In this document: positions 8,248 through 54,264 of the stretch, in pieces
How the letters are laid out: the number at the start of each line of letters is the position of its first letter
Numbering within the stretch: the stretch's first letter is position 1
From: an uncultured Nitrososphaerota archaeon
Lineage (GTDB): Archaea > Thermoproteota > Nitrososphaeria > Nitrososphaerales > Nitrosopumilaceae
Reading direction: 5' to 3'
Assembly: GCA_963701075.1 (NCBI GenBank)
Contig: OY969559.1
Location: 480,001 to 544,000 of the forward strand
Length of the DNA: 64,000 nt
Translations under genes and position numbers: made by a program
The notes under the pieces: model-generated
What the model saw: only the letters and a program-made list of their open reading frames with translations
Database searches by the model: none
What the model was told of the DNA's origin: nothing

Positions 8248-8473
8248 GTGAATACTACAATAAAAATAAAAGACAAAACGAGAGCAAAGCTTGAAAACTT
8301 TAAGATACATACAAAGGAAACATATAATGACGTTATTGAGAGACTAATGAAAGTAGCACAAGACGATGAGCTGAGATCCTCAAACAATAAAAAACCTTAG
8401 AAAATCCCTTGATGACATAGTGAAGGGTAAAACCTATTCCCTTACACAAGTAGAAAAAGAACTTGGTCTATAA
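8248..8473 (+). CDS. RHH-type antitoxin (apparent frameshift at 8373; not in ORF track)
   Basis: MNTTIKIKDKTRAKLENFKIHTKETYNDVIERL ... KSLDDIVKGKTYSLTQVEKELGL after removing one G; overlaps toxin start. Confidence 0.8.
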
Positions 8474-8714
8474 CATACTCATAACCGAGACTGCAAAGAA
8501 GCAACTGGCAAAGGTTGACAGGCAAAACGCAATAAGAATAGACAAGAAACTACGTGAAATTTTGCATGATCCATTTCTTTACATAACAAGACTTGCTAAT
8601 CTAGAACTTTACAAGCTAAGAGTTGGAGATTACAGGGTATTGATGAGTATTCAAAAAAACAGATTGATTATAGTGGTAGTTGAAATAAGCCACAGGCGTA
8701 ACGCATACAAATAG
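8463..8714 (+). CDS. relE: RelE family toxin
   Basis: AKKQLAKVD ... YKLRVGDYRVL ... ISHRRNAYK. Confidence 0.9.
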   Translation: MVYNILITETAKKQLAKVDRQNAIRIDKKLREILHDPFLYITRLANLELYKLRVGDYRVLMSIQKNRLIIVVVEISHRRNAYK

Positions 8715-8767
8715 GCTATCAAACTTTTTACATCGTTCTCTTATCTGGGCGTTTTTTCTAACAAAAA

Positions 8768-9233
8768 TTATTCATAGAATACATTTTTTACGTATTTTGA
8801 CAAGTTGCCCCTGACAGACAAATAAGACAGGACAAATATCGCAATGCCTGTAGCATGTGTTGCAGTACAAAGCAGACAGACAGAACCCACCAAGAAGAAC
8901 TCGACGTAAACAAGACATGCTGCAGAGGCAACTCCAATCCCAGCCCAGATGAAAAGGTAAAACGGAGCATTAGCACTGGCATCCTTAGAAAATCTCAGTT
9001 TGTTATGGTATAGCAATCCAGACACAGAAAACCAGACAACGCCAAACGCACCAAGAGGTATCTTTTCTACCTCAGAGTATGAGCTGAAGAACTGTATTGG
9101 TGCAGTTTATCTTGTCGCTCAGGTTGCACCAGCTTGGCAGCCCGGCTCTAGCTTCATAATGAAAATAAATCAGATACAACGATAACGATATCCCAATTAT
9201 TACACATGCCAAGAAAATTTTGGGGAATCTCAT
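8768..9233 (-). CDS. Vitamin K epoxide reductase (VKOR) family protein (apparent frameshift at 9086)
   Basis: Loop cysteines SWCNLSDKINC, VLSSYSEVEKIPLGAFG after repair, active-site CLLC. Confidence 0.85.
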
Positions 9234-9237
9234 GATT

Positions 9238-10044
9238 TTATTTCAAGTTTGCAAAGCTTTGAGAGCAAACATTGCTTGGCATATCATTTGTAGCCTTGCA
9301 AATTTCGCTAATCAGTGTGTTTGCTGTCCCATCTATGCCCTGGGCTACATTGCTATTGGGATTGTCAAGCTGCGAGCTTATCTGCTCCCAGGTCATCCCG
9401 GAGAGAAGACTTGGTTGGTATTGAGAGCCTGATACCATGTACTGGTTGGCAATATCTACAAAAGGTATGCCGCCTTGAGGGTTGTACGTCTTTGCCAAAG
9501 CATCCTGATCAGGCGTTGGAGTTTGCAGTGGAGTACTAAACCTGTCTTGAATTTCCACGGGCTGGAAAGAGATGTAGGGACTTGTATAAGTTGCCCCATA
9601 GAAAGAAAATGTTGGAGTGTTGGCATATTGGTCTGTAGGAGACGACTCCATGTAACTTAGATTGGTAAAGTTGCCAAATTTTGAAAGTGCTACTATCATG
9701 CTCCATCTTTCTGCAGCACAATAGGGACAGTACTCTGCCCCAAGATAAACAATGAGTGGCTTGTTGTTAGATGTAAGTGCGGGGCCTGAAATCTGGATAG
9801 GAGAAGTAGCACTTCCCTGACCAATAGACGACAGCGTGGAATCGCTCACATTTGATAATGAATTGTAGATATCTGAAGAGATGGGTTGCCCTATCATGCT
9901 TGTCGTGTTACTGCCATTATTTTGAGACAAATAAACAACAAATCCGATTATGGACGCAGCTATAATTACAGAAACTATGAGTATGCCCTTGCGATTTATC
10001 TTTGCCTTTGGTTTTTCAGATTCATTGGGTTTTTGGGGAGGCAT
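9238..10044 (-). CDS. DUF929 family thioredoxin-fold membrane-anchored protein
   Basis: [35 protein letters not shown]-terminal TM. Confidence 0.85.
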
Positions 10045-51409: not shown

Positions 51410-52219
51410 GTGACAAAAATTGCGATAGTACAGATGAAGGCTGATACCGAGAAGGAAAAAAACCTTAAAAAAATTCTTGGCTACATTGCACAGGCAGCAA
51501 AAAGAAATTCAGCACTGTGTGCATTTCCGGAATTTATGATGTTTTACACTCCATCTCACCAATCTGCGTCCGAACTTGCAAGCTTGGCAGAAAAAATAAC
51601 TGGAGAGTTTGTCACTTCGATATCAGAAGTGGCAAGAAAACATTCAGTCCAAGTTGTAGGAACATTTTACGAAAAAAGCCCAAAGGCAAACAGAGTTTAT
51701 GACACTTCATTTCTAACTGACCAAAATGGAAGAATAGTATCAAAATATAGGAAAATTCATCTCTATGATGCACTTGGTTTCAAGGAATCTGCAAAACTTT
51801 ACCCAGGTTCTTCAGTTGCAAGGCCCATTAAAACAAGTGTTGGCAAGATTGGCATGATGATTTGTTATGATTTGAGATTTCCTGAGATGTCACGCATGCT
51901 TGCATCTTCTGGTTCTGAGATTCTCATTGCTCCTTCTGCATGGGTGCAAGGAAAAATGAAGGAGGAGCACTGGATAACCATTAACAAGACAAGAGCAATA
52001 GAGAACGGATGTTATGTTGTTGCACCAGACCAGGTGGGAAACATTTACTGTGGAAGAAGCTTGATAGTGGATCCGTTTGGGAAAGTTCTTCTAGACATGA
52101 AAAAAAGGGAGGGTATTGGCATAGCTGATATCTCGCTAGATCAAGTAAAACAAGTACGCAAAAAATTGCCCCTTTTGAAAAACCGACGAACTGACATATA
52201 CACTGACTTTAAGATTTGA
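51410..52219 (+). CDS. Carbon-nitrogen hydrolase (Nit1-like amidase)
   Basis: FPE, YRKIHLYD, ICYDLRFPE triad. Confidence 0.93.
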   Translation: MTKIAIVQMKADTEKEKNLKKILGYIAQAAKRNSALCAFPEFMMFYTPSHQSASELASLAEKITGEFVTSISEVARKHSVQVVGTFYEKSPKANRVYDTSFLTDQNGRIVSKYRKIHLYDALGFKESAKLYPGSSVARPIKTSVGKIGMMICYDLRFPEMSRMLASSGSEILIAPSAWVQGKMKEEHWITINKTRAIENGCYVVAPDQVGNIYCGRSLIVDPFGKVLLDMKKREGIGIADISLDQVKQVRKKLPLLKNRRTDIYTDFKI

Positions 52220-52676
52220 TGGTTCTGCTTGAGCATCGTATGTTACAGCATTGCCTTATCCATTTCTGTTTCACTGAATATCTAAACACAATCATGGGCC
52301 AAAAGCAAATCTTACATGGAATCTTTGTCGCACATATCATTCCTTTCTGGATTAGCGGAGAAGAGGCTCTACATCCATTGTAATAGTTAGAGCATCCCAT
52401 GAAGCGTTTTCTTGTCTGCCTAGAACGTATGACCAAAAGCTTCCCAATCTTACATTCTGGGCACTCAACCAGCCCATTTGCAGGAGTATTTGTGCCTAGA
52501 ATGACATATTTTCCCTTCTTCTCTGACCATGAAAGATAGCCATTCTTGTCATAGTATTGGCGTATCTCTTCTCTTATTCTTACAACTTTTTTATCAGTAA
52601 TTCGAACAGAATTTCTTGCGCCTGATCTTTTTTTGAGCACAATTATCTGGGAAATATTTTCTTTCATTGATATCAT
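52209..52676 (-). CDS. Topoisomerase C4 zinc-finger domain protein
   Basis: CPECKIGKL...FMGCSNY...C; second CxxC. Confidence 0.85.
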   Translation of the reverse strand: MISMKENISQIIVLKKRSGARNSVRITDKKVVRIREEIRQYYDKNGYLSWSEKKGKYVILGTNTPANGLVECPECKIGKLLVIRSRQTRKRFMGCSNYYNGCRASSPLIQKGMICATKIPCKICFWPMIVFRYSVKQKWIRQCCNIRCSSRTIKS

Positions 52677-52740
52677 CTGATCTGACTGATTAAAGAATAG
52701 TAGTGAAGAATTTTTATATGGAATCTAGTCAGCAAGATTT

Positions 52741-53895
52741 GTGGAAAAGGTCTGTGTTATTGGTGCTGGCAGCACAAAATATGGCAAGCTGCAAGACAGT
52801 ATTACCGATATTGCACTTCAAGCATCTGTAGAAGCAATAGAGAGTGCAGGAATAGGACCAAAGCAAATCCAAGCTGGATACATATCAAATGTATTTGGTA
52901 TTGCAGACAAGCAAGTTCATTTGGGTCCAGTAATAATGAGTAACCTTGGCATCCCAGAAGTTCCATCATTATCAATCGAGTCTGCATGTGGAAGCGGTTC
53001 GGTATCATTTCGAGAAGCATATGCAAATGTAGCTGCAGGATTTTATGATGTAGTTTTAGCAACTGGTGTTGAAAAAGTAACTCACACTGGTACTGAATGG
53101 ACTACTACATACTTTTCTTATTGTTCTGATTTCTTTTATGAAGGAGGTGACGGCGCATCATTTCCGGGATTGTTTGCATCTATGGCAAGAGCATATCTTG
53201 CAGAGTTCAAAGCAACTGAAGAAGATCTTGCAATGGTTGCAGTAAAAAATCACGATAATGGTTTACTTAATCCAAAAGCACATCTTCGCAAAAAAATTAC
53301 TATCGATGATGTATTAAAATCAGCAGTAGTTGCAAGCCCGCTGAAGCTATATGACTGCTGTCCATTTTCAGATGGAGCAAGTGCTGTAATTTTGTGTAGC
53401 GAAAAATTTGCAAAGGCTCATTCAAAAAATTACATTGAAGTAATTGGATCAGGAAGGGGTGGCTCACCTGCTGCACTGCAAGGAAGAGAGCATATTACTA
53501 CAATTCCAAGTACCCAGATTGCAGCTCAAGCCGCATACAAGATGGCTGGAATCACTCCAAAGGATGTAGATTTTGCTGAAGTCCACGATTGTTTCACAAT
53601 TGCCGAACTAGTTGACACTGAAGATCTCGGATTCTTCGAAAAGGGACAAGCTGCACAAGCAGTACGAGAAGGAAGAACAAAACTCAATGCAGATATTTCT
53701 ATAAATCCATCAGGAGGCCTAAAGTCAAAGGGACACCCAATAGGGGCAACCGGAATAGGACAGGTAGCTGAAGTCTTTGATCAATTGACAGGAAAGGCAG
53801 GAGAAAGAACTGTCAAAGATGCAAAAATCGGGCTAACTCACAACTTTGGTGCAACTGGCGCAAGCTGCGCAGTTCATATTTTCAAAAGTGTATAA
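52741..53895 (+). CDS. Archaeal acetoacetyl-CoA thiolase
   Basis: ESACGSG, EVHDCF, NPSGGLKSKGHPIGATG. Confidence 0.95.
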   Translation: MEKVCVIGAGSTKYGKLQDSITDIALQASVEAIESAGIGPKQIQAGYISNVFGIADKQVHLGPVIMSNLGIPEVPSLSIESACGSGSVSFREAYANVAAGFYDVVLATGVEKVTHTGTEWTTTYFSYCSDFFYEGGDGASFPGLFASMARAYLAEFKATEEDLAMVAVKNHDNGLLNPKAHLRKKITIDDVLKSAVVASPLKLYDCCPFSDGASAVILCSEKFAKAHSKNYIEVIGSGRGGSPAALQGREHITTIPSTQIAAQAAYKMAGITPKDVDFAEVHDCFTIAELVDTEDLGFFEKGQAAQAVREGRTKLNADISINPSGGLKSKGHPIGATGIGQVAEVFDQLTGKAGERTVKDAKIGLTHNFGATGASCAVHIFKSV

Positions 53896-53897
53896 TT

Positions 53898-54264
53898 TTG
53901 CTATCTAAAGAGGAATTTATCACTAATGCAAAGGTAGGAAAGATATTAGCAAGAAAATGCACTAAATGTGGACATCCTCATCTGGTAACTACATACTTTT
54001 GCCAAAATTGTGGAAACAAGGGATTTGAGAATGTAATAATTGATGGCAAGGGCACAGTCAGCTACCTATACCATAATAACCGTCCCGCCAGAAGGTTTTG
54101 AGAAAGCTGTTCCATATGCCTGGGTTGTTATGAATGTGGATAATTTCGAATTACGAATTTCCGGCTTTATGGCAAATATCAAATCGCCAGCAGATCTGCC
54201 TTTGGGTACAAAAGTAAAGATAACCGGATATGATGAACACGGAATGATCATCGAAAAGCAGTAA
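53898..54264 (+). CDS. DUF35 Zn-ribbon/OB-fold thiolase partner (apparent frameshift at 54059)
   Basis: CTKCG...CQNCG; repaired GKGTVATYTIITVPPEGF. Confidence 0.9.

Follow-up and report, generated by a model that had tools for sequence, protein, structure and literature searches.

One-base insertion errors at AGCT in the assembly of an uncultured Nitrososphaerota archaeon and their likely origin in DNA methylation

Introduction

Base modifications can induce errors in nanopore sequencing, and two studies describe such errors in Oxford Nanopore reads and assemblies as being bound to a short palindromic word known to be methylated in bacteria, occurring in only some of its flanking contexts, being absent from short reads and creating false differences and pseudogenes in organisms that possess a methyltransferase gene (PMC11610573, PMC11610603). 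For Thaumarchaeota, the word AGCT is described as a methylated motif carrying N4-methylcytosine (m4C) in three further studies (PMC6329791, PMC8919816, PMC11033074). Here we analyse a stretch of 64,000 nucleotides (in the following, the window) from an uncultured, ammonia-oxidising Nitrososphaerota archaeon, i.e. positions 480,001 to 544,000 of contig OY969559.1 of assembly GCA_963701075.1, in which nine disturbed reading frames lie directly beside AGCT. A first reading of the letters alone, the original prediction, had attributed these nine sites to systematic base-calling errors at a methylated AGCT. Our data make it highly probable that the disturbed frames are long-read insertion errors at true AGCT sites, probably arising from methylation of this motif.

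The published methylomes offer the closest comparison. In a Nitrosoarchaeum bin AGCT carries m4C at 96% of its sites and GATC is methylated as well, the bin encoding one methyltransferase resembling AGCT enzymes and one resembling GATC enzymes (PMC6329791). AGCT is modified at 82-91% in both marine Thaumarchaeota bins reported by PMC8919816, and the AGCT enzymes M.Nca01I, M.NspBD3I and M.TarMY3I are tabulated in PMC11033074. These methylomes (BD3/M.NspBD3I, M.Nca01I, M.TarMY3I) and the genome analysed here belong to the same phylum and share the same word, the pairing of a single Dam-like methyltransferase with a single N4-type enzyme (PF01555), and a methyltransferase gene that has no nuclease partner nearby. 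They differ in that modification was measured there, whereas here it is deduced from genes and from an error pattern, and the named enzymes are likened to ours by type, not by orthology. The cytosine methylation of AGCT on which the original prediction relied is thus borne out by these sources and refined to m4C, and its premise that nanopore base-callers err at modified motifs likewise agrees with PMC11610573 and PMC11610603. The errors described in the latter are substitutions, whereas mainly one-base insertions (AGCTGA, AGTCT) at an archaeal m4C word are found here. Searches of the published literature, supplements aside, returned nothing specific on a Nitrosotalea methylome or on AGCT-linked nanopore errors.

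Results

The window comes from an assembly in one contig of 1,915,938 bases, the genome being labelled G000. Direct reading of its letters confirmed all nine coordinates of the original prediction, each carrying the named base within AGCTGA or its reverse complement TCAGCT. At 8373, 9086, 38186, 40544 and 43430 the + strand reads AGCTGA, its G being the extra base; at 15161, 17336, 27652 and 54059 it reads TCAGCT, the extra base being the C, so that the motif itself stands on the - strand. The window contains 33 AGCTGA/TCAGCT words (20 + 13) and 207 AGCT words. At eight of the nine sites two open frames become one when the named base is deleted, and at most sites with a broken gene the split halves fit adjoining parts of one Pfam family. 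Pfam also supports the names proposed for VKOR, NUDIX, atpI, pyrB, DUF35 and the antitoxin, whereas the names LEA_2 and CC1-like found no match, no Pfam family being detected for either half at 27652 or at 43430.

Public sequencing data cover a part of the window. Seventeen runs hold parts of positions 8300-18299, five of them with half or more of its sampled words, and contigs of four runs from two studies were compared with positions 8300-28000 (19.7 kb). X1, which may be the source sample, comes from the same study as X3 and X4, and X5 belongs to the second. We regard the run data as short reads, because one X3 contig terminates in library adapter sequence which we take to be of the transposase-library type. 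Over 7-8.5 kb the run contigs show no other letters than the window, and the sole indels in the 19.7 kb are one base left out at each of 8373, 9086, 15161, 17336, 19026 and 27652, all six omissions being found at full depth in every covering run; beyond these, the stretch is free of indels, also at homopolymers. The sole substitution at full depth in four of four runs is 22532 A>G. The remaining substitutions either cluster at 10789-10832, next to an insertion sequence and at half depth, or are seen exclusively in X5, the latter being strain differences. Each of the seven consistent differences falls within an actual AGCT or immediately next to one; positions of this kind account for 2.4% of the stretch (p ~4e-12). 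The runs do not contradict the window at another five AGCTGA/TCAGCT sites of this stretch or at its 19 intact AGCTA/TAGCT sites, and about 5 of 24 true AGCTA sites are miscalled within 8300-28000. The extra bases at 8373, 9086, 15161, 17336 and 27652 are hence absent from the accurate reads of the four runs, a comparison which the original prediction had itself proposed.

Site by site, the covered errors affect genes of diverse function. A DUF7557/VapB-like small antitoxin (8369..8374, motif and gene on the + strand; DUF7557 on the upstream half, E 2.6e-9) carries a false G at 8373 in place of a true AGCTA, the base being left out at full depth in X1, X3 and X4 with X5 giving no cover. In the VKOR-family gene (9082..9087, motif +, gene -) the false G at 9086 is left out in four of four runs and separates profile positions 2-44 from 48-133. 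The NUDIX hydrolase gene (17335..17340, motif and gene on the - strand; NUDIX profile 3-51 on the upstream half) contains a false C at 17336, again left out in four of four runs. A gene of 208 codons, formerly named LEA_2 (27651..27656, motif -, gene +), carries a false C at 27652, which is left out in X3, X4 and X5 with X1 giving no cover. The site at 15160..15165 (motif and genes on the - strand) is of another kind, as the false C at 15161, left out in four of four runs, fuses two genes rather than splitting one: GHMP_kinases_N/C of a pantoate-kinase-like GHMP kinase lie upstream and PPS_PS (phosphopantothenate synthetase) downstream of the site within an open reading frame (ORF) of 557 amino acids (14403-16076, - strand). 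On removal of base 15161 a TAG stop appears three codons past the site and ends the GHMP kinase, in agreement with the stop that had been predicted for the pok gene.

Two of the consistent differences were missing from the original list, whose nine entries are all genuine but which is incomplete, since 19026 and 22532 represent the same phenomenon. Within an ABC-transporter permease gene (MacB_PCD/FtsX; 19024..19028, + strand) the assembly reads AGTCT with a false T at 19026 inside a true AGCT, left out in four of four runs (assembly AAAGTCTG, runs AAAGCTG). This tenth frame break splits the gene between its MacB_PCD and FtsX parts. At 22531..22534, a site to which no strand is assigned, the assembly reads AACT and four of four runs read AGCT, the A for G at 22532 falling within ORF 22193-22591.

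The remaining four sites were compared with relatives. G006 (92-95% identity) has exactly one base fewer at 38186, 40544 and 54059, and G001 (75%) at 43430, and no other one-nucleotide indel in coding sequence occurs across the 13.3 kb aligned to G006. The comparison also returned a row of the unpublished genome G011, on which none of our statements depends. The false G at 38186 (38182..38187, motif +) interrupts the gene of A/V-type ATPase subunit I, which on joining has 687 codons with V_ATPase_I on its downstream half; a junction against the sister genome described below (bits 487/606) and the reading GAGCT-AGAAACC in G006 (92%) support the correction. In the aspartate carbamoyltransferase gene pyrB (40540..40545, motif +) the false G at 40544 truncates the gene and divides the OTCace profile into 1-98 and 106-156; four relatives have one base fewer, the shortfall in G006 lying at 40541-40544. 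The AGCTA at 40521 is intact and identical in the 92% relative, confirming that other AGCTA sites can be free of the error. A small gene formerly named CC1-like (43426..43431, motif and gene on the + strand) holds AGCTGA within TCAGCTGA with a false G at 43430, where G001 reads CAG-TTAAAAAAC and retains Q-L-K-N; the C at 43425 was considered as the false base instead of G 43430 and rejected, its removal giving a stop. The DUF35-type gene (zf-ChsH2/OB_ChsH2_C; 54058..54063, motif -, gene +) carries a false C at 54059, which splits it between the two domains, with G006 (95%) reading cacagt-agctacc.

We consider the affected genes to be intact and not pseudogenes, as the original prediction had held, because the extra bases are absent from the runs at five sites and from relatives at the other four. 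The alternative according to which the extra bases are real, the genes being pseudogenes or the assembled strain differing from the short-read strains, draws on the window carrying these bases, on the run comparison spanning five of the nine sites (the others being 38186, 40544, 43430 and 54059) and on X1 being only possibly the source sample. It is very improbable: six of six indels in 19.7 kb fall at AGCT and are lacking in four runs of two studies with identical flanks, the relatives are intact at 38186, 40544, 43430 and 54059, essential genes are affected (ATPase subunit I, pyrB, the coenzyme A pathway), and of the one-base insertions detected genome-wide in the scan described next, 103 of 120 lie at AGCT-derived words. 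We know of no mutational process that yields one-base insertions bound to AGCT. That the extra bases are consensus errors of the assembly, absent from the DNA of the organism, we regard as practically certain.

The extent of the errors was assessed with the sister genome G009 (13 contigs, 1.79 Mb, ~76% DNA identity), which was used in full. In a junction scan, open frames of G009 were searched against G000, the reciprocal search serving as control. This resulted in 155 frame-change junctions in G000 and 52 in the control, with one extra base at 120 versus 18 and with two extra bases or one missing base at 35 versus 34. Of the 120 one-extra-base junctions, 103 have AGCTGA/TCAGCT, AGTCT/AGACT or AGCTTA/TAAGCT within 12 nucleotides, compared to 9 of the other 35 junctions and to 9.3% of windows chosen at random. 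An unbiased k-mer count returned AGCTGA as top 6-mer (46/120; expected 1.8) and, among the 5-mers, AGACT in 55/120 (expected 8.5), and several of the remaining 17 junctions show AGCCT or AGGCT (e.g. G000:C1 1493834, 1731898, 1796178 and 804851). Judging from this pattern, the base falsely added between the G and the C of AGCT may be any of the four. The single AGCTGA signature of the original prediction thus holds at all nine of its sites but does not describe the phenomenon completely, as AGTCT/AGACT occurs as well, a form at least as common genome-wide as AGCTGA, and AGCTTA, AGCCT/AGGCT and base substitutions (e.g. AGCT to AACT) are found less often.

In a site-by-site test a base was deleted and blastp against the open frames of G009 was used to find a conserved frame spanning the site. 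Deletion of the G restores a conserved frame at 76 of 520 assessable AGCTGA sites (864 in total), i.e. 14.6%, compared to 0.5-1.3% for the control words AGTTGA, TGCTGA, AACTGA and GGCTGA; for AGTCT, 91 of 2,410 sites are restored (3.8%), with seven control 5-mers reaching 1.3-2.0%. Control words overall range from 0.5 to 2.9% and are not clean zeros, because any deletion a few codons from a true error also restores the frame. Positions 17325, 27672 and 43425, for instance, are flagged next to 17336, 27652 and 43430, and the runs show no indel at 17325 and 27672. Joining of open frames alone is uninformative, as 6.8% of all positions "join", AGCTGA reaching 12.6% versus 6-10% for 11 related words. 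Both approaches undercount, since the site test recovers six and the junction scan three of the nine known sites. Scaled from the site test and the context rates, we estimate about 130-220 false insertions in the 1.9-Mb genome. The miscall rate depends on the flanks: overall ~5% of AGCTA sites are affected, with 13-22% where GAGCTA precedes A, C or G and 1-3% in xAGCTAT.

The genome-wide data also bear on a reading in which the organism truly has the extra bases and passes over them through programmed frameshifting or another recoding at AGCTGA, a proposal to which one hexamer common to nine breaks and the TGA within that word could lend some appeal. As predicted, the motif is independent of gene direction, standing on the coding strand at six of the nine window sites and antisense at three. 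Of 76 errors genome-wide, 54 (71%) have the motif on the coding strand and 22 have it antisense, and intact AGCTAA sites have it on the coding strand in 230 of 332 (69%). A coding-strand bias of the errors as a biological signal was rejected, being equal to the base rate of the intact sites, and we see no link to the direction of translation because the two shares match. Recoding is ruled out by this missing link together with the absence of the bases from the DNA reads at the covered sites; at 15161, moreover, the extra base fuses two genes. The probability left to it is close to nil.

A search of the genome for a methyltransferase, as suggested by the original prediction, revealed a candidate of the N4 type, presumably with AGCT as target word. 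It is a full-length PF01555 (N6_N4_Mtase) match outside the window at G000:C1:910512-911378, encoding 288 amino acids (140.4 bits, E 6.6e-41, profile 1-221 of 221, above the curated cut-off). Enzymes of the N4-cytosine type show S-P-P-Y/F as catalytic motif IV rather than D/N-P-P-Y. The translation of the candidate reads ...LTVTSPPYHN, with S29, P30, P31 and Y32 being invariant among seven homologues, and its nearest solved structures include one entitled 'DNA cytosine-N4 methyltransferase'. The genome shows no match to PF00145 (C5 methyltransferase); a Dam-like PF02086 gene and two full PF02384 genes are present, a third PF02384 match lying within an RNA-methyltransferase-like ORF. A second PF01555 match (G000:C1:343832-344224) was rejected as a DNA enzyme, belonging to a THUMP/UPF0020 RNA-methyltransferase-like protein. 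Homologues of the 288-amino acid enzyme carry the name Nitrosotalea, and the gene is present in 23 of 24 genomes of the genus searched, with 76-95% identity. In its neighbourhood (G000:C1:909012-912875) an alba chromatin gene is located on one side, and the type I dehydroquinase and DHQ synthase II genes of the shikimate pathway lie on the other; these neighbours are housekeeping genes, and no nuclease was seen in this interval. The candidate thus has the appearance of an orphan methyltransferase of housekeeping type that the genus has retained.

The errors might alternatively reflect a plain-sequence weakness of the base-caller or polisher at AGCT, unrelated to DNA modification. In line with this, a minority of AGCT sites err, the rate varies with the flanks (13-22% versus 1-3%), and insertions differ from the error type described in PMC11610603. 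Opposed to it are the exact match of AGCT to the motif reported as m4C in Thaumarchaeota in PMC6329791 and PMC8919816, the conserved N4-type methyltransferase encoded in the genome and the lack of homopolymer or other indels in the 19.7 kb. A plain-sequence weakness is therefore unlikely, and we infer methylation to be the cause of the AGCT errors, which on this evidence is likely.

Two observations concern other parts of the window. An insertion sequence of the IS4/IS5 family is located at 11214-12049 (- strand) and consists of two overlapping frames, DUF4096 followed by DDE_Tnp_1. Its word depth is ~4 to 10x that of the flanks in four of four runs and many run contigs stop at 11203-11204 and 12083, and it is for these reasons either multi-copy or shared among organisms. 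Compared with G006 (95%), ORF 49320-51095 contains an in-frame insertion of 42 bases at 50744-50785 and one of 3 bases at 50816. Both lie in a repetitive, threonine-/proline-rich-looking stretch of a 591-amino acid protein lacking a Pfam match and are probably real repeat-number variation.

Discussion

The findings are best explained by a model according to which AGCT would be N4-methylated at its cytosine on both strands by the single N6_N4 methyltransferase of the SPPY type (G000:C1:910512-911378), with AGCT as its putative target. The modified motif would shift the signal, and the base-caller or polisher, presumably of a nanopore platform, would add a base in certain flanking contexts, converting AGCTA to AGCTGA, worst in GAGCTA followed by A, C or G, and AGCT to AGTCT/AGACT. 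The false insertions make genes that are in fact intact appear broken, truncated or fused. Indirect signs of the platform are the assembly into a single 1.9-Mb contig and the lack of homopolymer indels in the 19.7 kb compared with the runs.

Several points weigh against this explanation. Four of the nine sites (38186, 40544, 43430 and 54059) are supported by relatives and not by reads of this organism. Only ~5% of AGCTA sites err, and the flanking context consequently matters as much as the motif. In 10 of 24 genera of the family a search at E<=1e-20 did not detect the candidate gene, and the candidate may not be the same enzyme as the one in the published marine and lake Thaumarchaeota; the scan of seven sequences kept only Nitrosotalea/Nitrososphaerales records and reached no methyltransferase of tested specificity. 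One homologue with 84% identity is automatically named 'Modification methylase MjaI', an enzyme we take to target CTAG. As a word common to the errors CTAG was rejected, being missing from five of nine true contexts (GAGCTAA twice, GAGCTAC, CAGCTAA, TAGCTAC). Finally, the studies on nanopore errors report strand-specific substitutions (PMC11610603) and purine/pyrimidine ambiguity (PMC11610573), unlike the insertions dominating here.

A variant in which AGCT of this soil archaeon carries a mark other than plain m4C, e.g. a bulkier or double one, set by the genus-wide orphan methyltransferase beside alba, is quite unlikely. If true, it would explain why bases are inserted rather than substituted, and it would point to a housekeeping epigenetic rather than a defence mark.

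As a summary, the insertion errors at AGCT, probably derived from methylation, represent an artefact of a familiar kind and not new biology, and methylation of this word had already been reported for the phylum; the value of the finding is practical rather than conceptual. By our estimate, false breaks, truncations or fusions concern about 130-220 genes or gene ends of this single-contig genome. Among those affected are pyrB and the genes of ATP synthase subunit I and of the coenzyme A pathway, and a false fusion of 557 amino acids is created at 15161. Reading the breaks as pseudogenes, fusions or recoding would mislead, and the genes are to be annotated as intact. The closed single contig has a completeness score of 94.96%, and it is plausible that broken marker genes are behind this value. 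Assemblies of this kind need a motif-aware or short-read polish. At the same time, the errors hint, indirectly and at no extra cost, at methylation of AGCT in Nitrosotalea, as in its marine and lake relatives.

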